This document shows positions 2,177 to 34,584 of a DNA stretch of 34,584 nucleotides, one piece after another. Source of the DNA: a virus. A program made the translations under genes and the position numbers. The notes beneath the pieces are model-generated. The model was not told the DNA's origin and searched no databases. It saw only the letters and a list, made by a program, of their open reading frames with translations. The stretch covers positions 1 through 34,584 of IMG/VR virus record IMGVR_UViG_3300045988_085215. One strand, given 5' to 3'. Within the stretch, counting starts at the first letter, position 1. Every line of letters begins with the position of its first letter.

Positions 2177-2346
2177 TAGGGGGGTAGGGTAACCCCAGGG
2201 CATTTTGACGCTGAGGTTCACGCCGTCTATACAAATTTCTCGTAAAATATCGCTATACGCCAAATATAGCCTGTTTAAGAGGCTTTTAACAATATTATGA
2301 AGAAGTATAAGAGGCGCTTAAAATGGCGCTTATACGCTAAATTTAG
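2177..2346. other. candidate packaging recognition (cos/pac) region
   Basis: GC-rich tract taggggggtagggtaaccccagggc (2177-2201) sits in AT-rich DNA. Imperfect direct repeats cgctatacgccaaatatag (2251-2269) and cgcttatacgctaaatttag (2327-2346). ggcgctta occurs twice (2313-2320, 2325-2332). The region lies between the HNH and portal genes. Confidence 0.3.
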
Positions 2347-2356
2347 GGGGTTTTTT

Positions 2357-3664
2357 ATGAACTATAAAGGAATAGACTACTTAAGAAGTTTATTAGGAGA
2401 CAAACAAACAAGGATTGCTAAATGTTATGAATATTATAATCAGAAAGATAGGATGGATAATTCTCAAGCAATTACAGAGAATGCACAAATGCAGAGAATC
2501 ACGAAAAAGGTCGGTTGGATTCCTAAAGCCGTGGATTCATTAACGAACCGATTACAGTTTAGCGCTTTTGGGAATGACGATGAACTATTAGTTAACGATA
2601 TCTTCATGAGGAATAACAGAGATGTCTTATTTAAAACAATGTTTAAAGGGGCTATTATTTCTTCTTGTGATTTCGTTTATATTTCACAGAACACCGACGG
2701 CACAGCAAGGCTACAAGTAATTGACGGCTACAATGCAACGGGTGTTATTGATACTTCTACAATGCTACTAGATGAAGGTTATGCAGTATTAGAAAGAGAC
2801 AGTTACACAGGCAAGCCAACATTAGAAGCCTATTTTATCAAGGGCAAGACTCAGTACTTTAAGGACGGACACCCTATGGGTGAAATTGTTAATAACTTGG
2901 ATTATCCTTTATTAGTTCCGATTATTTACAATCCCGACGCTACAAGACCTTTTGGTAGAAGTCTGATTTCTGATTCACTTATGAAGTACGTAGACGACGC
3001 CAAAGAGACATTGCGACTTATGAGCGTGTCTGCTCAGTTCTACTCATTCCCTCAAAAATGGGTAACAGGATTAGACAATGACACCGACACTTTCGACAAG
3101 TGGCAGATGGTGATGAGCGCCATGATGGCTTTTGGTAGGGATGAAGACGGAAACACTCCGACAGTCGGACAGTTTATCCAACAGTCAATGTCACCTTACA
3201 ATGAGCAGTTAAAAACGCTCGCTTCTATGTTTAGTGGAGAAACAGGCTTGACACTTGACGACCTAGGCTTTGCCACTGCCAACCCATCAAGCGCTGAGGC
3301 TATCAAGGCAACTCATGAGACGCTTAGACTTATGGCAAGAGGAGCACAAGAGACCTTCGAAGTAGGGATTATCAATGTAGCATTCCTTGCTAAGTCATTA
3401 GAAAGCAATATGCAGTTTAAACGTTCACAGTTCGCAAATCTAAATGTTAGATGGAAGCCAACTTTTGAAGTTGACGCCACAATGCTTAGTGGTATTGGAG
3501 ACGGTGCTATTAAAATCAATAATGCAGTAGAAGGATACTTCGACAAAGAAGCACTTGAAGACTTAACAGGTATCAAGGCTTCTGAGGATGATGAACCAAT
3601 CTATAACAAGTTGATTGATGACACTATGACAGACAACGAAGATGAGGAAGTAGAAGATGAATAA
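2357..3664 (+). CDS. portal protein
   Basis: 435 aa from the ATG at 2357 (SD aggggg). It has an acidic C-terminal tail (DNEDEEVEDE) and lies directly upstream of, and overlaps, the MuF-like head gene, which is the canonical SPP1-type arrangement. Confidence 0.7.
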   Translation: MNYKGIDYLRSLLGDKQTRIAKCYEYYNQKDRMDNSQAITENAQMQRITKKVGWIPKAVDSLTNRLQFSAFGNDDELLVNDIFMRNNRDVLFKTMFKGAIISSCDFVYISQNTDGTARLQVIDGYNATGVIDTSTMLLDEGYAVLERDSYTGKPTLEAYFIKGKTQYFKDGHPMGEIVNNLDYPLLVPIIYNPDATRPFGRSLISDSLMKYVDDAKETLRLMSVSAQFYSFPQKWVTGLDNDTDTFDKWQMVMSAMMAFGRDEDGNTPTVGQFIQQSMSPYNEQLKTLASMFSGETGLTLDDLGFATANPSSAEAIKATHETLRLMARGAQETFEVGIINVAFLAKSLESNMQFKRSQFANLNVRWKPTFEVDATMLSGIGDGAIKINNAVEGYFDKEALEDLTGIKASEDDEPIYNKLIDDTMTDNEDEEVEDE

Positions 3665-4331
3665 TGACGTATCACCAACAATCCTTGAAGCAGTGGCAAA
3701 GGATTTTAAGAAAAAATATTCTAGTTCAAAAGAGATTAGCAGGCTACTAGTCAAGATTGAAAATGGCACGGCTTCTCATGCTGATTCCTACCAATTTGCG
3801 CAGAAGGTCAGCGACTATCTAAGCTATGCTATCAAGAAGAATATGACAGGAAGCACCCTTCCCAATGGTAAACTTTATTATCATATTGCAGAAGACGTTC
3901 TAACTCCTCTATTGAAGAATAACCACGCACTAGTTACAAGTTACGCAAAGAACGTTCAAACAATCCTTAATGTAAAGGACGATGTACCTTTTAAGGGAGT
4001 AACGGCAAAAATCAACACAGATAGGATTGAGGGTATTTGCTCAGAGTTCTCAAGAGCCGACAAATTCGAGGAAACACAACAGGAACTTGCAGACACTATC
4101 GAAAATTATTCGCTTTCAAGTGTTGATGATACCATCAAAGAGAATGTCAGATTTCTAAGCAACCTTGGTTATAATGAGGTTGTAGAAAGACATGCAGAAA
4201 GTGGCGCTTGCAAGTGGTGCAGAAGTTTAGATGGTACGTATGACTACTCGCCTAATATGGATAATACAGTATTTAAGCGTCATAAACGTTGTAAGTGCAC
4301 TATAGATGTGCACAGAATTAAACTATTTTAG
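3657..4331 (+). CDS. head morphogenesis / minor capsid protein (Mu F / SPP1 gp7-like)
   Basis: 224 aa. The C-terminal CKWCRSLDG...HKRCKCTI resembles the conserved Cys/His motif of the Phage_Mu_F domain. It follows the portal gene. Confidence 0.75.
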   Translation: MNNDVSPTILEAVAKDFKKKYSSSKEISRLLVKIENGTASHADSYQFAQKVSDYLSYAIKKNMTGSTLPNGKLYYHIAEDVLTPLLKNNHALVTSYAKNVQTILNVKDDVPFKGVTAKINTDRIEGICSEFSRADKFEETQQELADTIENYSLSSVDDTIKENVRFLSNLGYNEVVERHAESGACKWCRSLDGTYDYSPNMDNTVFKRHKRCKCTIDVHRIKLF

Positions 4332-4346
4332 GAGGATATAAAGCAT

Positions 4347-4529
4347 ATGGGCTTTGGATTTTTAAATTTAATTACAGTTATTTTTGTTATTGCAAAACTC
4401 GTTGGGGCGTTCCCTTTTAGTTGGTTGATTGTATTTTTACCAACAATTATTGATGTGGCTGTTATTCTTATTTGCTTCTTGATTGTTGCAATTGTTGCAT
4501 TAATTAACGTATTAAACGGAGACGATTAA
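4347..4529 (+). CDS. small membrane protein (60 aa, two predicted TM helices)
   Basis: Strong SD (aggagg, 9 nt spacing). The sequence is almost entirely hydrophobic. Confidence 0.6.
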   Translation: MGFGFLNLITVIFVIAKLVGAFPFSWLIVFLPTIIDVAVILICFLIVAIVALINVLNGDD

Positions 4530-4531
4530 CG

Positions 4532-5482
4532 ATGGCTTCTAGTACACTATATAAAGGCGACTGCATGGAGTGGCTCAAGAACATCGAGGATAATTCAATA
4601 GACTTGATTTTATGCGACCCTCCTTACGGTACGATGCACGGAGACTTTGGACAGGACACAGACAGCAACAGGAACAGAAAAAGTCTAAGCAAAATTGGAA
4701 AATGGGATATTGCTTTAGACACTGAGAAAATGCTAGAGGAGTGTACAAGGGTTTTACGACCTAATGGTAAATGTATTCTATTTTCACAAGAACCATTTAC
4801 AAGTGAACTAATCACCAAACAGACGGTTGATTTGCCTTTTTCTTATCCGATGTATTGGTTGAAAAACTGCTCGGGTAACGTATTAGGAGCAAAGAAGAAT
4901 TGCTTGCAGTATATCGAGGTTATGTTGCTATTCAAAAAGAAGGTCTATGGCGATGAAGTATATGCAGAAAGCCCCGTCCGTGATTATTTAAAACAGGAAC
5001 TAGAAAAGACAGGGCTAACAGTTCCACAGGTTAATAAACTGCTAGGGTGCTCAAGTATGGCAAGCCATTATTTCGGAGACGGAAGGCAGTTCGCTATACC
5101 GTCGGAAAAGTATTACAAAAAGTTACAGACAACAGGGCATTTTCAAAAGCCTTATGAATGGCTTAAAAATACAAATAAAGTAGATTATCCATCTACATTT
5201 AATTTAAATGGAGCAAAGTCCAAAAGTAACGTATTTCAGTATGCGAAGCCGTCTTCTAATAAGAGCGTACACCCAACGCAGAAGCCAACGGAACTACTAG
5301 AAGACCTTCTCAAGACTTTCAGCAATGAAGGCGATACCGTTTTAGATTTTACGATGGGCAGTGGTTCAACAGGTGTAGCGTGTATGCATACAAACAGAAA
5401 CTTCATCGGCATAGAGAAAGACGAAGACTATTTTAACATTGCTAAGAATAGAATAGACAACGCTCAGAACTCAAAAGAATAA
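4532..5482 (+). CDS. DNA methyltransferase, N6A/N4C beta-class (DPPY)
   Basis: Motif IV LILCDPPYG near the N-terminus. HPTQKPTELLEDLL and motif I VLDFTMGSGSTG lie near the C-terminus, which is the typical N6_N4_Mtase order. Confidence 0.9.
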   Translation: MASSTLYKGDCMEWLKNIEDNSIDLILCDPPYGTMHGDFGQDTDSNRNRKSLSKIGKWDIALDTEKMLEECTRVLRPNGKCILFSQEPFTSELITKQTVDLPFSYPMYWLKNCSGNVLGAKKNCLQYIEVMLLFKKKVYGDEVYAESPVRDYLKQELEKTGLTVPQVNKLLGCSSMASHYFGDGRQFAIPSEKYYKKLQTTGHFQKPYEWLKNTNKVDYPSTFNLNGAKSKSNVFQYAKPSSNKSVHPTQKPTELLEDLLKTFSNEGDTVLDFTMGSGSTGVACMHTNRNFIGIEKDEDYFNIAKNRIDNAQNSKE

Positions 5483-5508
5483 ATATATTATGCAGTAAAG
5501 CGAGGTGG

Positions 5509-5545
5509 TGTCAATTGATTGTTTGATACCAAATTTTAATTGACA
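5509..5545. repeat. inverted repeat upstream of terL
   Basis: tgtcaatt (5509-5516) and aattgaca (5538-5545) form 8-bp arms separated by 21 nt, just upstream of the terL SD. Confidence 0.4.
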
Positions 5546-5563
5546 AGGTAGGAGGGTAGTAAT

Positions 5564-7009
5564 ATGTCAGAACAAAAGAGAATAGGACAACAAACTCCTA
5601 CTAATAGTTACATCATTCCATATGAAAATAGTTTAGGTCAACAGGCTATTGACTTATACAATAACACCAAAAACACAGCGATGGAGTGGCAAGAAATACA
5701 GATGATGGACATCATGGCTATTGACGAGGAAGGTCAATGGCAACATATGAAATATGGCTATTCAATCCCACGAAGAAATGGGAAGTCCGAGTTACTCGTT
5801 ATGCGTGAGTTGTGGGGATTGCTACATGGTGAGCGTATTCTACACACTGCACATAGAACACCAACGTCGCACGCTTCTTGGGAGAAACTCAAGAAGGCAT
5901 TGGACGAAAACGGCTTCGAAGAAGTCAAACGAGCAGATAAGGCCAAAAAGTATAACAAGGCTTATACTGCAACGGCTCAATATGGACTTGAGACCATCAC
6001 AATGCTAGACGAGTTAGAAGGTACTATCAACTTTAGAACAAGAACTTCTAAAGGTGGACTCGGTGAAGGTTTCGACCTTTTAATTATTGACGAGGCACAG
6101 GAATATACCGATGAACAGCAATCAACATTACAGTATGTTGTTACATCATCGGACAACCCACAAACGCTCATGTGTGGAACACCACCAACCGCGGTTTCCT
6201 CGGGTACGGTTTTCGAAAAGTTGAGGGAGTCTTGTTTGAGTGGACAGGCTCAAAATTGCGGTTGGGCTGAATGGTCAGTAGAAAAAATGTCAGATGTCAA
6301 GGCTAAGGACATATGGTATATGTGCAATCCGTCATTAGGTCAGACCTTGAAGGAACGTTCGGTAGCGTCTGAGGATTCTAGCGACGAGGTAGACTTTAAT
6401 ATACAGAGGTTCGGGCTATGGCTCAAGTACAACCAAAAGTCAGCCATCCTTGAAAGGGAATGGGATAACTTGAAGATTGAAGACGTGCCACATCTAACAG
6501 GTAAGTTATACGTTGGTATCAAGTACGCCAAAGATGGTAATAGTGTTTGTATGTCGGTTGCTTGTCTTACAGAGGAAAAACGCATCCTTGTTGATGTAGT
6601 CAACAGAAAGTCGGTAAAAGACGGCAACGATTGGATTATTAATTTCCTAAGACATGCAGACGTAAAGCGTATCGTTGTTGACGGTGCGAACGGTCAAGCA
6701 GTGCTCAAGGAAAACTTAAAAGACGCCAACATAAAAACACCTGTCACATTGCCAAAGGTCAAAGAAGTTATTGAAGCCAATGCACAGTTTGAAAAGTCCA
6801 TAAACGATGGTACGTTGTGCCACTTTGGACAGCCCTCATTGAGACAGGTTGCGACTAACTCAGAAAAGAGGGCTATAGGTACAAACGGAGGCTTTGGGTA
6901 TAGGTCAATCATGGATGATGTAGATATTGCTTTACTTGATTCTACTATTTTGGCTCTATGGGCTTGCAATAAATACAGTAGAAAGAAAAAGCAAAAAGTA
7001 TTTTATTAA
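5564..7009 (+). CDS. terL: terminase large subunit
   Basis: 481 aa. Walker A-like PRRNGKSE, Walker B LLIIDEAQEY, and a C-terminal nuclease-sized domain. SD aggaggg. Confidence 0.85.
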   Translation: MSEQKRIGQQTPTNSYIIPYENSLGQQAIDLYNNTKNTAMEWQEIQMMDIMAIDEEGQWQHMKYGYSIPRRNGKSELLVMRELWGLLHGERILHTAHRTPTSHASWEKLKKALDENGFEEVKRADKAKKYNKAYTATAQYGLETITMLDELEGTINFRTRTSKGGLGEGFDLLIIDEAQEYTDEQQSTLQYVVTSSDNPQTLMCGTPPTAVSSGTVFEKLRESCLSGQAQNCGWAEWSVEKMSDVKAKDIWYMCNPSLGQTLKERSVASEDSSDEVDFNIQRFGLWLKYNQKSAILEREWDNLKIEDVPHLTGKLYVGIKYAKDGNSVCMSVACLTEEKRILVDVVNRKSVKDGNDWIINFLRHADVKRIVVDGANGQAVLKENLKDANIKTPVTLPKVKEVIEANAQFEKSINDGTLCHFGQPSLRQVATNSEKRAIGTNGGFGYRSIMDDVDIALLDSTILALWACNKYSRKKKQKVFY

Positions 7010-10593: not shown

Positions 10594-10976
10594 TAGCGCT
10601 CTCTATGTGGCTGAGAGCGTACAAGAAAGAAATAATTTGCGACCTAGCGCAGTACTACAACATATACGACTATCACGACTATAAGCCATCATACATTTTT
10701 ATTTTAGTTGATGGTTTAGAGGATAATAGCCGTTTTAAATTAAAATTAAACGGTATGAAGACCACAACGGACACAATGCTAAGCGCTATCGCTTGCGATT
10801 ACTTGGCTAAGTTATGGTGGTCTAAGACTGAGGACGCTGAACACGGCAGAAACAAGCCAATATCAATCCTTTCACAACTGCTAGAAGAAGACACACAGAA
10901 ACACGAGGAAGACGGCTTCGAAAGCGCTGAGGAATTTAACAAGGCAAGAAGCCGACTCCTCAGAAAGGAGGAATGA
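10318..10976 (+). CDS. tail assembly chaperone, -1 frameshift fusion product (GT-like)
   Basis: The downstream ORF (10605-10976) is in the -1 frame relative to 10318. The -1 frame is open from 10590 (cta gta gcg ctc tct atg...). The downstream ORF has no SD of its own. Confidence 0.65.
10584..10590 (+). promoter_or_regulatory. -1 programmed ribosomal frameshift slippery heptamer A AAA AAC
   Basis: The zero frame reads gtA AAA AAC tag, which fits the X XXY YYZ pattern. The site is at the conserved position at the end of the chaperone ORF. Confidence 0.7.
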
Positions 10977-10979
10977 TAA

Positions 10980-12959
10980 ATGGCAACAGACCTCGGAAAA
11001 GCATATATACAGATTGTACCTTCTGCAAAAGGTATCACGTCGTCTATTAAAGACGTAATCGAAAAGCCTATGACGGAAAATGGGGTTCATGGTGGCTCTT
11101 TATTAGGTGGTGGAGTAGTTAAGACCCTTACGAAAGTTTTAGCGACAGGAACACTCGGAAAGATAGTTGGAAATTCTCTTACAGAAGGAGGAAAACTGCA
11201 ACAGTCCATCGGTGGTGTTGAAACTCTATTTGGCAAGAGTGCCGACAGGCTCAAGAAATACGCAAGCCATGCTTTCCGTACGAGTGGAGTTAGTGCGAAT
11301 GAATACATGGAACAGGCGACATCATTTGCTAGTGCTTTAGTAATGTCTTGTGGAGGAAATACGGCAAAAGCCGTTGAAATGGCGAACATGGCTATTAGAG
11401 ATATGTCAGACAACTCTAACAAGTTCGGTACTAACATAGGAGACATCCAAAACGCATATCAAGGATTCGCAAAGAACAATTATACTATGTTAGACAATCT
11501 GAAGCTTGGCTTTCAAGGCTCGAAGCAAGGCATGGAGCAACTTCTTGCAAAGGCTCAAGAAATAACAGGGGTACACTATGATATTAATAATTTAAGTGAT
11601 GTTTATAGTGCAATCCATGAGATACAGAAGAAGATGGACGTTACTAATACAACGCAGAAAGAAGCGACTAAGACCCTAAGCGGTTCTTTTGGTATGCTTA
11701 AGGCTTCTTGGAGTGATTTCCTGGGCAGTCTATCAACAGGAGGAAACGTTAAGCAGACATTTAGTAACCTTGTAACCTCATTAGGTACATTTGTAGGTGG
11801 TAACCTTATTCCAATGCTAGGTAATATTGTAAAATCAGCATTTACACTTGTGACGGACGGAATGAACAATATGCCACAGATACTTGACGCAGTGCAGAAA
11901 TTCGCAAATAACATTGCTAAGCAAGCCCCACAGTTTATAAAAAGTGGTTTTGAAATGCTGAACAAACTAGCAGAAGGACTTATTAGTGCGTTGCCTGTTA
12001 TGATTGCGAAGATTCCTACAATCGTGAGCACTTTTGCAAACGTGATTAATGACAACGCCCCTACTATTTTAATGAGTGGCGCTAAGTTAATCGGTAAATT
12101 AGTAATGGGTATTATACAGTCTATACCTGTTTTGATTGCGAACGTTCCTAAAATCATCATGGCAATTGTGGATGTATGGTCAGCGTTTAATTGGTTACAA
12201 CTTGGTTCTAACGCAGTAAAAGGGCTTGGCAATGGTATAAAATCAATGTTCGGAGCAATCAAAAACACAGGTCAAGGCTTATTAAACGCAGTTAAGGGAG
12301 GATTATCCAACCTTCCATCTTCTCTTATGAACTTAGGTAGGTCAGCCGTTTATTCTTTAAGTGGTACAATCGGAGGACTAGGACATCTCGGAAGGTCAGC
12401 AATGCTTAAGATTGCTAGTGCTATCGAGAGTGCCATTAGAACGCTACCATCAAAAATGCTTGGAATTGGTAAAGACATTGTAAAAGGTATATGGAGCGGT
12501 ATTTCGGGCATGGGTGGTTGGATTGCAAAACAGGTTGGAGGATTTGCAAGTGGTATCGTAAACAAGTTTAAAAAGTCGCTAGGCATTCACTCTCCATCGC
12601 GTGTCATGAGAGATATGGTCGGTATATATATCGGTCAAGGTATCGGAACAGGTATCATCGCTTCGTTATCAAGCGTTAAAAAGGATATAGACGAGTTCAA
12701 TGATGAAGTTATTGATGGCTTTAATCCATTAAAAAGCGCTCCTGTAGGCTTAGGAGCGATTCAGAGGGTTAAAACGCAGATGGACAATGAAGATATAACA
12801 AACTTAAAACGTGGCTCATATAGTCAGAATGAGGCTAATAACGGCAATGTATATCAGACATTAAACGTCAACAGTCCTACACAGTTAGACCCTAGCGAAG
12901 TGGCACGACAGACACGTAATGCAAACAGAGAATTGATTTTAAAACTTAAGGGGGTATAG
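10980..12959 (+). CDS. tape measure protein
   Basis: 659 aa and the longest ORF in the tail module. It is Gly/Ala/Ile-rich with hydrophobic central repeats and sits at the canonical position after the chaperones. Confidence 0.9.
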   Translation: MATDLGKAYIQIVPSAKGITSSIKDVIEKPMTENGVHGGSLLGGGVVKTLTKVLATGTLGKIVGNSLTEGGKLQQSIGGVETLFGKSADRLKKYASHAFRTSGVSANEYMEQATSFASALVMSCGGNTAKAVEMANMAIRDMSDNSNKFGTNIGDIQNAYQGFAKNNYTMLDNLKLGFQGSKQGMEQLLAKAQEITGVHYDINNLSDVYSAIHEIQKKMDVTNTTQKEATKTLSGSFGMLKASWSDFLGSLSTGGNVKQTFSNLVTSLGTFVGGNLIPMLGNIVKSAFTLVTDGMNNMPQILDAVQKFANNIAKQAPQFIKSGFEMLNKLAEGLISALPVMIAKIPTIVSTFANVINDNAPTILMSGAKLIGKLVMGIIQSIPVLIANVPKIIMAIVDVWSAFNWLQLGSNAVKGLGNGIKSMFGAIKNTGQGLLNAVKGGLSNLPSSLMNLGRSAVYSLSGTIGGLGHLGRSAMLKIASAIESAIRTLPSKMLGIGKDIVKGIWSGISGMGGWIAKQVGGFASGIVNKFKKSLGIHSPSRVMRDMVGIYIGQGIGTGIIASLSSVKKDIDEFNDEVIDGFNPLKSAPVGLGAIQRVKTQMDNEDITNLKRGSYSQNEANNGNVYQTLNVNSPTQLDPSEVARQTRNANRELILKLKGV

Positions 12960-12962
12960 TAG

Positions 12963-13847
12963 TTGAGGAACAAAGAAATAAGAACAATCACGTGTACCAA
13001 CGAATTGGGATATACGATTAACTTTGGGGAAACTTCTATTTTCCCTTTTCTGTTAGTTGATTGCGATGGTATCTATAACTATGAGTATAACGTGACTACT
13101 CAAGACAACGGTAATGTTGACGGGTCAACCGTTATCGGTTCAAAACTCAAGGAAAGAAATATCGTTATAACCGTAGTTGATATTGATAGATTCGCTAGAA
13201 ACCGTGAAATGTTGGACAATATCTTTTCATGTGACGGTGTTCTTACTTATGATGACGGAGTGCATAGAAGAAAAATAAACTACACAGTCGAAAAACTAGC
13301 AGGAACGGATGGAACGTTTCAAAAGCGAACTACTCAGATATCCTTATTATGTGCAGACCCTCACTTTCACGATATAGAGGATAACGAGTTAGATATGGCA
13401 TACATTGACTCGCTTTTTGAATTTCCTCACGAATTCACAGGAGATGAGGAGATTTCTAAAATTGTAAAAACACAAAACATTGAAATTTTAAATAAAAACG
13501 GTGCTGAAACTTCTATGTCTATTTTAATGACAACAAACGGAGCAGTAACCAACCCTTCCATCTCATTACAAGAGACAGGGGAAAGCCTAACGCTAGGAGT
13601 AGAGGGGATTAAAGATTTTACACTAAGTACAGACCAAAAAGTACTCATAACAACGGATTTAAACAACTGTCATGTCTATCTTCTTGATGTTGACGGTTCA
13701 AAAACCAATATTAATAACTACTTAACATCGGATTCTGTCTTCCTCAGATTAAAACACGGAGTAAACCACATCGGATATACTGCTAAAAGTGGCGTTGATA
13801 ACTTAAGCGTGTCAATAACTTTTAAAAACAGTTACTTGAGGGGGTAA
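12963..13847 (+). CDS. distal tail protein (Dit-like)
   Basis: 294 aa with a TTG start 9 nt after aaggggg. It lies directly after the tape-measure gene. Confidence 0.65.
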   Translation: MRNKEIRTITCTNELGYTINFGETSIFPFLLVDCDGIYNYEYNVTTQDNGNVDGSTVIGSKLKERNIVITVVDIDRFARNREMLDNIFSCDGVLTYDDGVHRRKINYTVEKLAGTDGTFQKRTTQISLLCADPHFHDIEDNELDMAYIDSLFEFPHEFTGDEEISKIVKTQNIEILNKNGAETSMSILMTTNGAVTNPSISLQETGESLTLGVEGIKDFTLSTDQKVLITTDLNNCHVYLLDVDGSKTNINNYLTSDSVFLRLKHGVNHIGYTAKSGVDNLSVSITFKNSYLRG

Positions 13848-13850
13848 GAT

Positions 13851-14900
13851 ATGCAATTAAGAATATATAATAGGGATATGGAACCATTAGGGATTATCGA
13901 GAATGCTTACTCCGTTCAATGGATTAGGAACTACACAACTTGTGGCAGTTTTGAAGTACACTTCCCTATCAACACAAAAGCCCTTGAACTCATTAAACTT
14001 GATAATCTAATATGGATTCAAGGCAAGAAAAATTGTGGCGTTATCGAGGGTATCACGATTGAACAGACTGCAACAACTAGCGATGTAAAAGTTATTGGAC
14101 GATTTGCCGAAAGTTACTTCGCACGTAGGCTCATTAAAAACACTTTTAATTTTAACGGTAAGGTCGAAGAAGCGATGAGGGAACTTGTGACACTTGCAGA
14201 TATACCACGAGTTAGACTTGGGAAGCTAAATGGGTTTAATGATAAGATACAGTTTCAAGCAACATATAAGGATACGCTTAAATATATTGAGAAGTTGTCA
14301 CAGGCATCTAATATCGGTTTTAGGTTAGTGCCTAGCTTTGATGAAAAGGTATTTTATTTTGAAACATATAAAGGCTTGAACAAGTCGGAAGAACAGAGAG
14401 ACCGACCACGTGTAATCTTCTCACAGCGTAACGGTGACATTTCAAAAGCAGACTATAACGCAAACTCGCAGAACTACTCAAATGTCTGTTATGTGGGTGG
14501 TCAAGGTGAAGGCTCAAGCCGTCAAATTGTTATTTGTGGGGATGACAGTTTAACGGGATTAGACAGACGAGAAACCTTTATAAATGGCTCAGATATCTCA
14601 AAGGATAATTTAAGCGATTCACAATACATTGAAAGTTTAAAACAGAGAGGAGAAAGCAATCTCAAAGAAAAAGTCCTTGTAAAGTCACTTGAAAAAGAAG
14701 ACCGTATGCATGGGACATATAATTATCCTGTCGATTATGATGTGGGCGATATAGTCACAAGTAGGCTAGAATTTTGGAATTTAAAAAGTAATGATAGAGT
14801 GGTTTCGGTTAATGAAATTTATGAACACGGTAAAATGGTGGCAGTTCCGACACTAGGAACACCACTTGCGAGCAATGTAGATTGGAGTGATAATTTATAA
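13851..14900 (+). CDS. tail-associated / baseplate hub protein (Tal or Gp37-like)
   Basis: 349 aa. The N-terminus MQLRIYNRDMEPLGIIENAYSVQWIRNYTTCGSFEVHFP resembles the siphovirus Gp37-like family as I recall it. It follows the Dit-like gene. Confidence 0.55.
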   Translation: MQLRIYNRDMEPLGIIENAYSVQWIRNYTTCGSFEVHFPINTKALELIKLDNLIWIQGKKNCGVIEGITIEQTATTSDVKVIGRFAESYFARRLIKNTFNFNGKVEEAMRELVTLADIPRVRLGKLNGFNDKIQFQATYKDTLKYIEKLSQASNIGFRLVPSFDEKVFYFETYKGLNKSEEQRDRPRVIFSQRNGDISKADYNANSQNYSNVCYVGGQGEGSSRQIVICGDDSLTGLDRRETFINGSDISKDNLSDSQYIESLKQRGESNLKEKVLVKSLEKEDRMHGTYNYPVDYDVGDIVTSRLEFWNLKSNDRVVSVNEIYEHGKMVAVPTLGTPLASNVDWSDNL

Positions 14901-14901
14901 T

Positions 14902-15792
14902 ATGGCAACAGATAATTTAGGATTTCCATTCGATTCGATAAATCATGATAGAACTATGTCAAGTGCTTCTTTTAGAAAAATGTTTAAAAGTTTTTTCACG
15001 AATGGGATTTTTAGTACGGACGACTTTTGGGTAATGGCAGATAATTCAATGACCCTCACAGTCGGCACAGGAAACGCAAGTATCAATGGAGCGTTTTATC
15101 CTTTAAACGAACAAAAGAAGTTAACCATTGATAGTTCAAACGGTACATATGATAGATATGACGCTATCGCTATCGAATTCAACTTAACAGACCGTCAATT
15201 CTATGTAAAAGTTGTAAAAGGTGGAAGCGATTCGAGATACCCTGTACCTGTCAGAACGGCCTCAGTGTATCAATTGATTATAGCATTTGTTAAAGTCAGC
15301 AGAGGCGTAACATCACTCGTGCAAGAAGACATCAACGATGTTAGAGGTGATACGTGGTATTGTGGCTATGTCACAAGCACAGGGTCACAGGAACGATTCG
15401 AGAAGGAATTGCAGAAACTCAAAACACAGATTGACAATATGAACAATGCGAACACATGGAGCGAGTGGAAGTCATGTGGCAAGAATGCTTGTGGTATTAC
15501 ATTACTGTATAGATACAACGAAGCACTGAAACTTTGCGAATTGAATTGGGATGGAGGCGTCATAGCGCCTGTCGGAAACAATACAATTGGGTACATGTGG
15601 GAAGGATTCCCAACGGATAAAGCACCTAAAATTAATATGTTTATACCTGTTCAAACACAGAGCAACGACCTTACTTTACGTTTTTATCCTGTCACAGATG
15701 ACATCACGGCCAACCATTGGACACTTACGGCAATGCAAGGCACTGTATCAAGTGGTTATATTTGTGGTAAGTATATCTATTCATATGCTTAA
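14902..15792 (+). CDS. tail/baseplate structural protein
   Basis: 296 aa from the ATG at 14902; the track start at 14887 overlaps the previous gene. It lies in the baseplate region. No specific family was assigned. Confidence 0.55.
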   Translation: MATDNLGFPFDSINHDRTMSSASFRKMFKSFFTNGIFSTDDFWVMADNSMTLTVGTGNASINGAFYPLNEQKKLTIDSSNGTYDRYDAIAIEFNLTDRQFYVKVVKGGSDSRYPVPVRTASVYQLIIAFVKVSRGVTSLVQEDINDVRGDTWYCGYVTSTGSQERFEKELQKLKTQIDNMNNANTWSEWKSCGKNACGITLLYRYNEALKLCELNWDGGVIAPVGNNTIGYMWEGFPTDKAPKINMFIPVQTQSNDLTLRFYPVTDDITANHWTLTAMQGTVSSGYICGKYIYSYA

Positions 15793-15807
15793 CAAGGGGG
15801 TGATTAA

Positions 15808-18101
15808 ATGATAAATATTACAATTGCAGAGAATGGCACTCCATCTTCTGAGATAATCAAACTAGGTAACGAGTTTGAAAATTTAGACGAGGTCATACAG
15901 TTCACCTTCCCAACAGACCTTGAACCACTGCATAAATACGTAGTGGCTAAGACTTACGACCCAAAAAAAGAAGGAAAACATAACCCGTGTAACTCCTCTA
16001 GTCAATAACAGATTTGTAGTAGGGACAGCAATTACAAAGGTTGTTGGAACGTGGATGTTATACACATTATGTAAATCATATGCAGTAGATGAAGACGGCA
16101 ACATTACAAACACAGAGCGTGTCAGTATCTCAGACCCAATCATAGCAACCATAAACGAAAATGATATTGATGTAGGAAGTATCGAAAAAGTAGAGTTAGA
16201 CCCTAACATCAAGATAATCTATGATGAATTAATAAGTTTTAAAAAAGAACTAGAGCAGAATGAAGCAGCTAGACAGGAAAATGAGGAAGCACGCGTAAAC
16301 GCTGAAAACGCTAGAGCAGAAGCAGAGGCAAAAAGGGAAGGCGTTATAACTAAGTTAAGAGAAGACCTCGATGGCAATATAAAACTAAGCGATAAGAATG
16401 CTAGAAGTCTAACGGCTTTATGGGACTTAAACAAGGGAATTTCTTATAGGTTTGAAGAAGACAACGAAAAAGCCTATCAAAAGACCGTGCCAAGTGGCGC
16501 TAAACTAGGTGCAGTAAATTCAATCGGTGGAAAAACCATTGTATATAATCAATATGCTAATATTGACGGTATAGTCATGGCGTGGGCAGATAATACTAAC
16601 ATTTATAGTGACTTAAAAAGACTAAGTGGTCACAAACTATATTGTATGAATAAGTGCATAGTAAAAAACATATTGTACGATGATAGAACAACATATTCAA
16701 AACGTTTTTTTGTTGTTTGATTCCGATGAGAGCAAAACCATAAATGTAGAGAATACTCTTATAAAAAAAGAAGACATACAAGTAGGAAAAGTTTTTAGAA
16801 CTAGTAAAATAGTACAAGCACCTAGCAACCTTGTAGAAACACGAGTATATAACATTGGTGATGATACTATAGGCTTAACTGTAGAATGTGACACATAGCT
16901 TATGCTGATTGATTTAACGCAGATGTTCGGAGAAGGCAACGAGCCAACAACGGTTGAAGAATTTGAATCAATGTTCCCTAATGCTTATTATCCATATAGC
17001 GAAGGTGAACTTATGAGTATACCTGTTAACGAGGTTGAGGAAGTCGGGAAGAATATATTTAAATGTAAGAATTTCTCATGTAGTGGATTAGTTGGAGATT
17101 ATAACCCAAGTTTAAGCAATTTTTACGGCACATCTATAAATTCTACTGAACCTTCTAATAGTATCACCGTTACTCAATCAAAAATCGCACAAGAAAATAA
17201 TGCAATAAGTTATTAGAATGGCTACTTTTGTGTTTTATTTAAACCTGTTATTTTGTATGAAGGATATGTATTTTCTTTCGACATAATACCATCAAAGAAA
17301 TTGATTGAAAACCCCAAAATCATGATTCTATTAAATGGTAATAATCCAATTGGAACTGCAAGCGCTCAAGACTTACAGATTGGTAAAAGAACTAAGTTAT
17401 ATTTTGGTTTAAGGGCAAATAATACCAAAATAATATATATTGAGTTCCGTAACAGTGGCATTAGTGGCGTGTTTGAGAATTTCCAAATTGAAAAAGGCTC
17501 TGTCAATACTGCATACGTTCCATACCACGAAAACCATTATCCAATTCCACAAGCCATTCTTAACTTAGACGGTTACGGATGGGGCGTTGGTGATGTATAC
17601 AATTATGTCGATTATGAAAACAAGAAGTTTTATAAGTATGTCAATAATGCTGATTTAGGAACATTTACGGATGTATACGAATATGATGGCTTAACACCAC
17701 AAGAAGGACTGCACATTTTCGCAATCAATATCAGCAACATAAACGTAAAAGATGGCTCTAGCACTATTTGTGAATTATTTAATAGTATCCCTTTTGATGA
17801 TTTAACTAGCGAGGATGGGATGTATTTAAATGTTGCATATAACCAACTTATAATATCTACAAATAAATGTAAGAGCGTAGAAGAATTAAAAGCCTATATC
17901 AGTGGTAAATATTTCTATTATGAACTTGCAGAACCAATCGTAACAGACATCTCAGACATTATCAGAGATACATTCCAAGAGCCGATTAATGTTGAAAGTG
18001 GAGGCTCATTAACTTTCAAGAACTCAAACGGTGACGGCTACCAAGTCGCAGTGCCTAGCGATGTGCAGTATGTCGTATCACTTAAGGAGGTGGCAGAATG
18101 A
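15808..18101 (+). pseudogene. tail fibre / receptor-binding protein reading frame interrupted 4 times (pseudogene, sequencing artefact or recoded gene)
   Basis: There is one strong SD, at 15808 (aaggggg). Five track ORFs lie in a row and the later ones have no SD. Frames overlap across an A7 run (15963-15969) and a T7 run (16705-16711). In-frame TAG codons lie at 16896-16898 and 17214-17216. The sequence has a coiled-coil segment (EQNEAARQENEEARVNAENARAEAEAKRE) and an LIDLTQMFGEGNEPT motif typical of fibres. Confidence 0.6.
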
Positions 18102-18277
18102 CAGACCTACAAAGAAAAATGATAGAGAAACTAGGACTATCAAAAGAAGACTTCGAGCCTATCAATAAAGACAGGCTACTAGAAGAAGCATACCTAAAAG
18201 CAGAGTATAATTCGATTCTATTAGAACAGTTAGGAGGAGTGAGCGATGATTTACAGATTAATGAAACTAAGAATTAG
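18098..18277 (+). CDS. hypothetical small protein (59 aa) downstream of the fibre
   Basis: Not in the track. SD aaggagg lies 7 nt upstream, and ATGA overlaps the fibre stop codon. Sequence: MTDLQRKMIEKLGLSKEDFEPINKDRLLEEAYLKAEYNSILLEQLGGVSDDLQINETKN. Confidence 0.6.
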   Translation: MTDLQRKMIEKLGLSKEDFEPINKDRLLEEAYLKAEYNSILLEQLGGVSDDLQINETKN

Positions 18278-20401: not shown

Positions 20402-20920
20402 TTATTTGTTAATTTCCTCAAAAATAATTTGTTTAGCTAGCATATGATGGCATACATAAATACTACTAAATGGAGGGTTGATACTAGGCTTTTGGTCGTC
20501 ATAGTTCTTAAAATAAGATACCCTCTTATTCAAGTATAAGCACTCGAACTCGTTATCCCTAAACATTTCAAATCTTCTTTTACTCTCAAACAAGCCGACT
20601 ACTCCGACAAGCATTGCGAACGGCTTACCAATTTCAAAGAGTCTCTGCAATACCTCCGTTTTGAGGCTATACGGTGGATTAGAAATGATATAGTCACATT
20701 GTGGGGGATTCATTGTGAAGAAGTCCTCTCCGTTGTCTATGTGGCTATAAATGACCTTACAGCCCATATCTCTAAACTCCTTTACAAATAGACTTTGCTC
20801 AGTATCGAAAGGACACCACACAACCGAGCCTTTCTTTACATATTTCTTTATTGGTTCAATGGCATATGATGGGGTGTAGTACTCATCATTCTTGTTTTTT
20901 GCAACCTCAGAAACTATCAT
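20402..20920 (-). CDS. putative N6-adenine DNA methyltransferase (NPPY)
   Basis: 172 aa. Motifs are EYYTP near the N-terminus, VVWCPFD (AdoMet-site-like) and IISNPPYS (motif IV). Confidence 0.65.
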   Translation of the reverse strand: MIVSEVAKNKNDEYYTPSYAIEPIKKYVKKGSVVWCPFDTEQSLFVKEFRDMGCKVIYSHIDNGEDFFTMNPPQCDYIISNPPYSLKTEVLQRLFEIGKPFAMLVGVVGLFESKRRFEMFRDNEFECLYLNKRVSYFKNYDDQKPSINPPFSSIYVCHHMLAKQIIFEEINK

Positions 20921-22447: not shown

Positions 22448-23284
22448 TTATAGGCTTTCTAATAATCTGCCTAATTCATTATGTAAGCCGTTCAGTTCGT
22501 TGCTTTCTTCTTTCTTGTTATCTGCAACCATGAAACGCTTGCCACTACTAAACTTTTTAGGGTCTGTATAGTCAAAACTAAATTTGTAATATTGAACACG
22601 ACCATTCTTTTTTACTTTCTCATACTTGAGATTCTTGATACATTTACACTTTTCATTTAGTTCTTTTATAGCCTTGTTTATTGTATATCTTTCAAAGTCT
22701 GCTCTATTGAAATTTCCATTTGTAGCCATGTATGCTTCCTTTGGAAGTCCGAACATGTCTTTCAGTTGTTTAGTAGAATAATCAATACCCATGAAGTCAA
22801 TATTTGACATTTTCCATTTATCCTTCATCAAGTTCTGATATAACATCATAGAATATTTAGACTTTAAACCTATTAAATCATCATTTAAGAATCTTACGAA
22901 TTTATCCTTCAATTCATATACTAATGGCAAATAGTCGCTATCAAACATAATATAGAAAGTATTTTTTGATAATCTTACTCGTCTAATTATTGAACCACTC
23001 TCGAAGCCGTCTTCACTATTGAATTCTATCTTAGAGTTATCTCTTAGTTTGTCAAGTTCTTTTTTAATTCTAGTATAGCGTCCTGTCTCATTCTCTATAC
23101 CTAAAAAGTTAAATAGTTCCTGTTTGTTGATTGCTACTTCGTCTCTTTCATTTAATCCGTTTCTTAGTGAAGCAATGCTTACATAAAATAATTTTTGTTG
23201 TGTAACACTGAAACGAGTGCTCTTTTTTGCTAGTGTGTTACTCATTGCCACTACTTGATTTTTTAATGTGTTTCTATCTGTCAT
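22448..23284 (-). CDS. plasmid-type replication initiator (Rep_3 / RepB-like)
   Basis: 278 aa. N-terminal VVAMSNTLAKKSTRFSVTQQKLFYVSIASL and central FVRFLNDDLIGLKSKYSMMLYQNLMK match the Rep_3 pattern I recall (N.L...y.L...E, then F..f.l..l..lkSkYs.rlYelL). Iterons lie directly upstream. Confidence 0.75.
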   Translation of the reverse strand: MTDRNTLKNQVVAMSNTLAKKSTRFSVTQQKLFYVSIASLRNGLNERDEVAINKQELFNFLGIENETGRYTRIKKELDKLRDNSKIEFNSEDGFESGSIIRRVRLSKNTFYIMFDSDYLPLVYELKDKFVRFLNDDLIGLKSKYSMMLYQNLMKDKWKMSNIDFMGIDYSTKQLKDMFGLPKEAYMATNGNFNRADFERYTINKAIKELNEKCKCIKNLKYEKVKKNGRVQYYKFSFDYTDPKKFSSGKRFMVADNKKEESNELNGLHNELGRLLESL

Positions 23285-23337: not shown

Positions 23338-23350
23338 GCCCATATTTAAA

Positions 23351-23415
23351 CAATCTAAACTCCCCATATATGATAATCTAATTTACCCATATAGAATAAT
23401 CTAAACTCCCCATAG
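23351..23415. repeat. three iterons with a 23-24 bp period
   Basis: aatctaaactccccata (23352-23368), aatctaatttacccata (23376-23392) and aatctaaactccccata (23399-23415). Confidence 0.8.
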
Positions 23416-34254: not shown

Positions 34255-34584
34255 TGAGTAAATACAATTCAAAAAAGACAATTATTGACGGTATAACGTT
34301 CGATTCTAAGAAAGAGGCTAGAAGGTACGTAGAACTAAAAAAGAAGGCTGAGAACGGAGAAATAAGCGATTTAAGGCTACAAGTACCCTTCGAACTTGTA
34401 CCGTCCTTTACAATCGAGATAGACGGCAAGAAAAGGAAACGAAGAAACATTCGCTATATAGCCGATTTCGTCTACTATGAGAACGGTCAAAAAGTTGTTG
34501 AAGATGTAAAAGGTAGGAAGACCGACATATACAAATTAAAAAAGAAATTGTTTGAATACAAATATAAGGTAACTATAAAGGAGA
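34254..34584 (+). CDS. DUF1064 protein (PD-(D/E)XK, putative resolvase-like); continues across the circular junction to position 60
   Basis: The ATG at 34254 overlaps the ssb stop codon. [50 protein letters not shown]...IRYIADFVYYENGQKVVEDVKG matches the DUF1064 pattern. There is no stop before the window end, and the frame continues through 1-60 to TAG. Confidence 0.85.
   Translation, partial: MSKYNSKKTIIDGITFDSKKEARRYVELKKKAENGEISDLRLQVPFELVPSFTIEIDGKKRKRRNIRYIADFVYYENGQKVVEDVKGRKTDIYKLKKKLFEYKYKVTIKE

Follow-up and report, generated by a model that had tools for sequence, protein, structure and literature searches.

We analysed a complete viral genome record from IMG/VR (IMGVR_UViG_3300045988_085215, positions 1 to 34,584; this whole stretch of 34,584 nucleotides is called "the window" in the following) with a focus on positions 15808-18101, where five consecutive open reading frames (ORFs) follow one another on the plus strand. 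With a probability of about 0.78, we consider this locus to be a pseudogene with four lesions, left over from a long accessory gene for a tail fibre, while the human-gut phage that carries it is otherwise functional. In terms of annotation, the five ORFs would then be one dead gene, neither a recoding event nor five small proteins. A preliminary description of the same DNA, made from its letters only, had proposed a broken tail-fibre gene at this place and had listed three possible explanations, i.e., decay in a defective prophage, homopolymer sequencing errors combined with real amber codons, and conditional expression through slippage or +1 frameshifting together with amber suppression. These options are taken up below where the respective evidence is presented.

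The whole reading from 15808 to 18101 is split by a run of seven A (A7), a run of seven T (T7), and two in-frame TAG codons. Its only strong Shine-Dalgarno (SD) sequence, AAGGGGGTGA, is located at 15794-15803 on the plus strand and is kept in all relatives, immediately 5' of ATGATAAA, while nothing comparable was seen ahead of 16055, 16902, and 17253, where internal starts could lie. Frame 1 begins with the ATG at 15808 and closes at a TAA (16006-16008). Frame 2 covers 15944-16717 without a stop, and frame 3 opens at 16665; A7 (15963-15969) and T7 (16705-16711) each sit within one of the overlaps between these frames. Removal of one A and one T gives a reading of 763 codons that still holds the two TAGs (16896-16898 and 17214-17216), which are the sole separators of the last three pieces, all of them in frame 3. 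On recheck, the positions of both runs, both TAGs, and the frame 2 and frame 3 openings in the preliminary description were exact, and its claims of a single strong SD and of a last piece lacking any initiation signal were borne out as well. Only the peptide that it had given for the repaired first junction, DPKKEENITR, had to be corrected and actually reads DPKKKENITR.

Going from 5' to 3' along the plus strand, piece 1 (15808-16008) consists of 55 native N-terminal codons (MINITIAENG...DPKK; query residues 1-55 in tblastn, frame 1) followed by 11 out-of-frame codons and the TAA, and it is probably the sole product that is still translated. The first lesion is one surplus A in A7 inside the lysine run PKKKEN, as seen in the alignment with relatives. 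Piece 2 (15970-16710, frame 2; tblastn query residues 53-302 at 99%) would encode what remains of the N-terminal beta domain, then the coiled coil and the beginning of the first beta-sandwich, according to the domain map of a continuous homologue, P0001, and it ends with the second lesion, one surplus T in T7 that was found by DNA alignment with the related genomes L001 and L002. Reading-frame analysis then delimits piece 3 (16712-16895, frame 3), which extends as far as the first TAG. This third lesion is a single G>A change just 5' of a LIDLTQMFGxGNEP motif, and piece 4 (16899-17213, frame 3) holds the conserved LIDLTQMFGEGNEP motif, defined by the alignment of homologues, together with a linker. 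Beyond the second TAG, which is the fourth lesion, piece 5 (17217-18101, frame 3) would encode the C-terminal beta-sandwich domains and the conserved tail ...YVVSLKEV before a TGA at 18099-18101. This last piece has no start signal of its own: the final 282-aa ORF (17253-18101) begins with a TTG, 12 open codons into the piece.

All four lesions are derived. We collected relatives in two ways, via the fibre itself and via its neighbouring genes, and determined lesion polarity from DNA alignments that took in L001, L002, L003, L005, L014, and L018. At the site of the A-run, relatives carry CCC-CAAAAAG, CCAAAGAAAAAG, or CCAAAGAAGAAG, which are all in frame and shorter or interrupted but never A7. 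At the site of the T-run, L001 and L002 have CGTTTTTTATTG with only six T (T6), encoding R F L L. The counterpart of the first TAG is TGG (Trp) in L001, L002, and the homologue P0002, and that of the second TAG is AAA (Lys) in L001 or GAA (Glu) in L002. Two +1 insertions and two nonsense substitutions are thus without counterpart in intact relatives, and the locus shows what defines a pseudogene, i.e., homology to an intact continuous gene and disabling lesions that are missing from relatives at the same sites.

The repaired product is 85% identical across 100% of its length to P0001, a continuous protein of 762 aa from a related gut phage, and P0002 (751 aa) likewise spans all of it. Overall, it has 478 homologues at E <= 0.001, and the best 120 of these are mostly 750-960 aa long with a common N terminus (MINITI...), a common C terminus (...YVVSLKEV), and a mosaic middle. 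Because the repaired product aligns end to end with continuous homologues, a single ancestral reading is far beyond chance, and the preliminary description's reservation that other phages might have genuinely separate genes at these boundaries does not hold. The motif LIDLTQMFG.GNEP that it had assigned to phage fibre proteins is indeed real, with L368, T369, G373, N376, E377, and P378 (P0001 numbering) being invariant in 25 homologues.

In an AlphaFold model of P0001, of moderate confidence with a predicted local distance difference test (pLDDT) score of 63, an N-terminal beta domain is followed by a long helix (residues 131-190) and three beta-sandwich regions. Foldseek searches with this model returned glycan-binding beta-sandwiches and others resembling carbohydrate-binding modules (CBMs), the central fibre of mycobacteriophage Douge, and the TP901-1 baseplate, the latter with low template modelling (TM) scores to chains of ca. 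295 aa (4v96). Profile matches in the PDB, to T7 gp17 and the T5 L-shaped fibre, did not extend beyond the coiled coils of these proteins. We rate them as coiled-coil noise, and the assignment as a tail fibre is therefore based on predicted fold. The gene lies in the order tape-measure protein (TMP), Dit, Sipho_Gp37, a 296-aa gene, fibre, a 59-aa gene, holin, and amidase. This placement at the tail tip before the lysis cassette is found together with an anchor domain, a coiled-coil shaft, distal domains, and mosaic variability, as is typical of fibres. Judged by the model, the intact protein is a tail fibre whose shaft is a coiled coil and whose distal domains resemble carbohydrate-binding ones.

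Two further observations concern the fibre family as such. The homologues P0087 and P0116 both stop at ...FDVIPSKK (around residue 497 of the window's protein), which may be a recurrent truncation site or mere contig ends. Another homologue, P0003 (L015, 10001-12580), shares 74% identity in the central and distal region. It is encoded by a prophage whose structural module is different apart from the fibre and which adjoins comGC, efp, nusB, and xseA in a chromosome of 2.6 Mb. The fibre module has therefore been exchanged between unrelated phages that presumably share hosts.

The damage is restricted to the fibre gene. All 20 other genes that we compared with five relatives run in one frame without stops and with matching lengths, and breaks are not visible among the remaining ORFs, which are close-packed. 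Four lesions in the 2.3 kb of the fibre gene thus stand against none in 28.6 kb of other coding sequence (p ~3e-5 under an even spread). In pairwise comparison with L001, the fibre has a ratio of nonsynonymous to synonymous substitution rates (dN/dS) of 0.21, which is within the range of the 15 other genes above 200 nt in length (0.03-0.22) and below the 0.39 of the 59-aa gene. Nonsynonymous and synonymous (N/S) changes specific to the window number 33/21 in the fibre versus 68/141 in 15 other genes (odds ratio 3.3, p = 2.5e-4). By these substitution patterns, the other genes are under purifying selection, and relaxed constraint on the broken fibre copy is suggestive only.

The first 55 nt of the window recur exactly at its end (1-55 = 34530-34584), and the record therefore represents a complete circular assembly of ca. 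34,529 bp; an overlap of this length is expected from a short-read de Bruijn assembler with k=55, which was probably used. The encoded functions include portal, minor head protein, methyltransferase, large terminase (TerL), scaffold, capsid, tail tube, TMP, Dit, and Tal-like protein as well as lysis genes, a Rep3 initiator, DnaB, an antirepressor, YqaJ/RecT, and a single-stranded DNA-binding protein (SSB). Of the first explanation in the preliminary description, a decaying fibre gene in a defective prophage, the decay is thus well founded, while the defective element is contradicted by the 20 intact genes, the N/S of 68/141, and the circular genome.

Two of the four lesions are +1 changes in homopolymers, an error type that is classic for several sequencing platforms, and all are seen in an assembly only, in a hypervariable region where strain mixtures hamper assembly. 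Some or all of them might accordingly be artefacts of sequencing or assembly that conceal an intact gene. However, the 55-nt overlap suggests a k=55 short-read assembly, and consensus errors of such assemblies are rare at homopolymers of 7 nt. Moreover, none of the 34 homopolymers of at least 6 nt in other genes breaks the frame, two substitutions that both create stops in one gene are not error-like, and in independent assemblies (ENA SPAdes, Logan, and IMG/VR), the fibre gene of relatives has lost its start codon, suffered deletions, or acquired nonsense codons. We therefore regard artefacts as a very improbable cause, and the earlier suggestion of homopolymer errors combined with real ambers appears unlikely on the same grounds.

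Loss at this locus is not limited to the window. We found a broken fibre locus in 8 of ca. 14 related genomes, while five or six are intact. The fibre gene is intact in L001 (762 aa), L003 (945 aa), L014 (751 aa), and L018 (877 aa), and L010 and L012 carry an intact but different module of 363 aa. The broken loci show a variety of lesions. In L002, an internal deletion with a frame change has removed the N-terminal domain of the fibre, and the 5' end of the downstream gene is gone as well. The fibre gene of L005 has one in-frame TAG that aligns with S or N, while L006 combines two 1-nt deletions with a deletion that joins residue ~190 to the downstream gene. L011, which has a different fibre module, shows a change of ATG to ACG, a deletion of ca. 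350 nt, and a 1-nt deletion, and L022 has a TAA at codon 22 and, in adjacent codons, an extra A in the same lysine run that is affected in the window. In L024 and L025, the fibre gene is reduced to a remnant that has two frame changes and has lost sequence both internally and at the 5' end, and in L026 it is disrupted by a single A6-to-A7 change. Since these lesions are not common to any two genomes, the losses are independent. The neighbours of the broken fibre loci are intact in the relatives, except that the 59-aa gene was truncated together with the fibre in L002 and L006. With about half of the relatives affected independently, the fibre gene looks expendable. While the locus in the window is itself an ordinary pseudogene, we consider the recurrent, gene-specific loss of the fibre across this clade to be a point worth following and of moderate interest.

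Some features of these genomes could also point to programmed or conditional expression, in which slippage or +1 frameshifting at A7 and T7 would act together with amber suppression or, in a weaker version, the runs would serve as reversible contingency tracts at the DNA level. The window and L022 each have +1 A in the same lysine run, L026 is broken by the A6-to-A7 change alone, and TAG accounts for three of four nonsense codons found across the clade. In addition, a preprint reports that phage repeats of at least 6 nt show indel frequencies of ~3e-4 and can be reversible contingency loci (PMC12633550). However, the sites are not conserved, and intact relatives use a single frame and do not need any recoding. 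The sequence A AAA AAA favours a -1 slip, while a +1 shift would be needed here and the -1 frame closes at once. TAG terminates 14 of the 56 genes in the window, and the in-frame TAGs of the clade align with W, with K or E, and with S or N, i.e., several amino acids would have to be recoded. Four low-efficiency events would also multiply, resulting in an estimated full-length yield of well below one per million translations. Finally, L022 has its TAA upstream of the shifted run, and many relatives have irreversible deletions. No tRNA genes or Rfam elements were found in the window. We therefore give hardly any credence to conditional expression, and the preliminary description's third option is not supported given the lack of site conservation, the use of TAG as a normal stop, and the varying residues.

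Several specific mechanisms were considered individually and discarded. A reassignment of TAG is contradicted by its use as terminator (see above), the confinement of in-frame TAGs to the fibre gene, the absence of a phage tRNA, and the different residues at the affected positions. Programmed frameshifting or transcriptional slippage does not agree with non-conserved sites and the wrong direction of the slip. Evolved contingency tracts were rejected because homopolymers are not enriched in fibre genes (1.1-2.2 per kb versus a genome average of 1.19 per kb). A diversity-generating retroelement was dismissed since the annotated ORFs do not include a reverse transcriptase and since indels and a G>A change are among the lesions.

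We infer that the long fibre is dispensable because a separate and intact protein resembling receptor-binding proteins (RBPs) is encoded directly upstream. This 296-aa protein (14902-15792, plus strand) has a predicted fold like the RBPs of phages p2 and TP901-1, with shoulder, neck, and head, and is preceded by an intact Sipho_Gp37 (Tal-like) tail-tip gene (13851-14900, plus strand) and by Dit (12963-13847) in the context of the adsorption apparatus. Its family is uniform in length (290-314 aa) and conserved over the full length. In the structural model, the C-terminal half reaches pLDDT > 90, and the matches comprise the p2 RBP, the head of TP901-1 ORF49 (TM up to 0.77, root-mean-square deviation ~3 Å), and gp15 of Listeria phage PSA. 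From fold similarity alone, the 296-aa protein is likely the primary adhesin, and the long fibre is most likely a second, dispensable adhesin. Phages lambda (gpJ and Stf) and T5 (pb5 and Ltf) also combine an RBP with a side fibre, an arrangement to which that of the window phage can be likened. Prediction of the host range should then use the intact RBP-like gene upstream.

The baseplates of the lactococcal phages p2 and TP901-1 (Dit, Tal, BppU, and RBP) share with the window the gene order of TMP, Dit, Tal-like protein, and RBP-like protein besides the fold match of the 296-aa protein. Unlike the window, they do not have an additional fibre of 760 aa downstream of the RBP, and there is no similarity at the sequence level.

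If the fibre were instead essential, the genome would be a dead end or a cheater, i.e., either a recently crippled plasmid-prophage that is inherited vertically or a phage that obtains fibres in trans from co-resident relatives by phenotypic mixing. The mosaic and hypervariable fibre locus is of the kind that usually sets the host range, while the upstream 296-aa protein is conserved. With its Rep3/iteron replicon and no integrase detected, the element could also persist as a plasmid without infecting new cells, and intact and broken relatives occur in runs of adjacent accession (ERR11029055, ERR11029069, and ERR11029102: L001, L014, and L002). However, ca. 50 lesions would be expected elsewhere in the genome at the lesion density of the fibre, compared to none in ca. 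28.6 kb, and several relatives have 2-4 lesions, in the fibre only. Furthermore, the window-specific changes in virion genes are strongly skewed to synonymous ones, and an intact RBP-like protein exists. An essential fibre is therefore unlikely in our opinion, and we prefer the decay of an accessory fibre gene in a functional phage.

This preferred reading has to be weighed against several findings that speak against it or weaken its support. The lesions are known from assembled sequence alone. L024 and L026 had been chosen for contigs that lack a full-length fibre match, which inflates the share of broken loci among the relatives; in the unselected set anchored on neighbouring genes, 4 of 7 are broken. 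The excess of nonsynonymous changes in the window's fibre is mirrored in part by the intact copy of L003, for which the odds ratio of fibre versus other genes is 2.2 (1.2 for L001), and the fibre's dN/dS of 0.21 is far below 1, so that the gene would have been inactivated only recently compared with its divergence from L001. For the 296-aa protein, the N-terminal half of the model is of low confidence, there is no sequence-level match in PDB or Pfam, and its conservation rather than hypervariability is unusual for a determinant of specificity.

We propose the following course of events. The ancestor would have encoded a single protein of ca. 763 aa that began with a beta domain and continued with a trimer-type coiled coil, CBM-like beta-sandwiches, and a conserved C-terminal tail. 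Replication slippage would have lengthened an A6 and a T6 tract by a base each, and two point mutations would have turned a Trp codon and a Lys or Glu codon into TAGs. Given the indel frequencies at repeats of at least 6 nt cited above, such A6 and T6 tracts would be the usual first hits. Translation from the lone SD would now stop after 66 codons so that the fibre is not made, and the phage would survive through the intact p2/TP901-1-like RBP on its tail tip. The fibre gene would then decay, either neutrally or by selection for lower adsorption, while the other genes stay under purifying selection.

The closest parallel is the stf frameshift of laboratory lambda. Lambda has an accessory fibre gene beside its essential tip adhesin, and this gene is split by a frameshift (PaPa versus Ur-lambda) in a fully viable phage, as it would be in the window; the side fibres of lambda and T5 speed adsorption but are not essential (PMC12617516). 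Mutations of this kind are also readily selected in dense, structured culture: of 21 lambda isolates selected under biofilm-like conditions, 19 were stf mutants, including 15 frameshifts, almost all of them located at short homonucleotide runs (PMC2762979). However, the laboratory phage has a single lesion as opposed to four in a natural gut phage, the genes have no sequence homology, and the adhesins differ (gpJ versus a p2/TP901-1-type RBP). The host of the window phage is presumably Gram-positive, and its fibre loss recurs across a natural clade. The L-shaped fibre of T5 (pb1, Ltf) resembles what is predicted for the window's fibre in that it is long, with a coiled coil, and glycan-binding, and it speeds adsorption in T5 while infection does not depend on it (PMC12617516). 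The source of the homologue P0088 gives it the label "L shaped tail fiber protein", and a weak profile match to 8hqz lies in the coiled coil; the likeness is limited to a low-complexity coiled coil, and the domain set differs.

Two other known systems are similar in part. At phage contingency loci such as T2 agt and T4 rIIA, one-base indels of either sign in A-tracts disable a conditionally useful gene (PMC12633550). The tracts in the window are, in contrast, short (6-7 nt), not enriched, and not conserved, and the window represents a loss rather than a reversible switch because of its two nonsense codons and the deletions in relatives. Human-gut phages with reassigned TAG, including some Crassvirales, similarly have in-frame TAGs in late structural genes. 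Unlike in such phages, TAG regularly ends genes in the window, a single gene is affected, there is no suppressor tRNA, and the residues at these positions differ.

It is conceivable, though doubtful, that selection maintains a presence/absence polymorphism of the fibre in which fibre-less variants are favoured in the dense gut and fibred ones for reaching new hosts, with the A- and T-tracts as first-hit switches. Loss of the fibre could then reduce adsorption to debris and immune lysogens or evade defences that sense the fibre, and such a polymorphism would be the wild counterpart of Stf loss in lambda under biofilm-like culture. Irrespective of this, the clade would be a clean natural case of gene-specific, repeated, and multi-hit loss of an accessory adhesin under otherwise purifying selection. 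If confirmed with reads and a cultured host, it would make the costs and benefits of high adsorption testable in the gut and would allow the essential receptor contact to be assigned.

Directly downstream of the fibre, an intact gene of 59 aa (18098-18277, plus strand) overlaps the fibre stop codon. It is truncated along with the fibre in L002 (~11430-11540) and L006 (~10740-10860) and kept beside every fibre type, including that of the unrelated prophage L015. The 59-aa protein may be a fibre-associated or assembly factor.

Regarding the lifestyle of the element, a Rep3-type plasmid replication initiator (PF01051/PF21205) is encoded at 22448-23284 on the minus strand, and three iteron-like repeats of ca. 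20 nt with a spacing of 23 nt are located beside it in a low-GC (29%) intergenic region (23349-23414). No integrase was found among the ORFs scanned, and two scans of contigs from named genomes for prophage copies returned only a distant match of 31% in a Bacteroidales metagenome-assembled genome. Near-identical DNA was not found in phage and plasmid collections or, by exact pattern, in IMG/VR, and look-ups of two proteins of the window for exact matches were likewise negative. The window phage could be a phage-plasmid or else a temperate phage that does not integrate. One of its relatives, L012, is labelled as human gut metagenome.

The head genes are arranged in an unusual order (2297-7009) of portal, minor head protein, a small ORF, an N6/N4 DNA methyltransferase, and then the large terminase, with an HNH endonuclease at 1746-2156, 5' of the portal. 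Two DNA methyltransferases are encoded, an EcoRI-methylase-like one (20402-20920, minus strand) and one of the N6_N4_Mtase family (4532-5482), which suggests protection against restriction. The tape-measure gene (10980-12959 in the window) is continuous with 659 aa in the window, L001, and L024, and it is split into ca. 186 aa and ca. 487 aa in several relatives (L018 1137-4058, L019-L023, and L005 5424-5703) by an insertion that carries a NUMOD4/HNH_3 homing endonuclease or is an insert of 230-280 nt. This insertion looks like a mobile intron.

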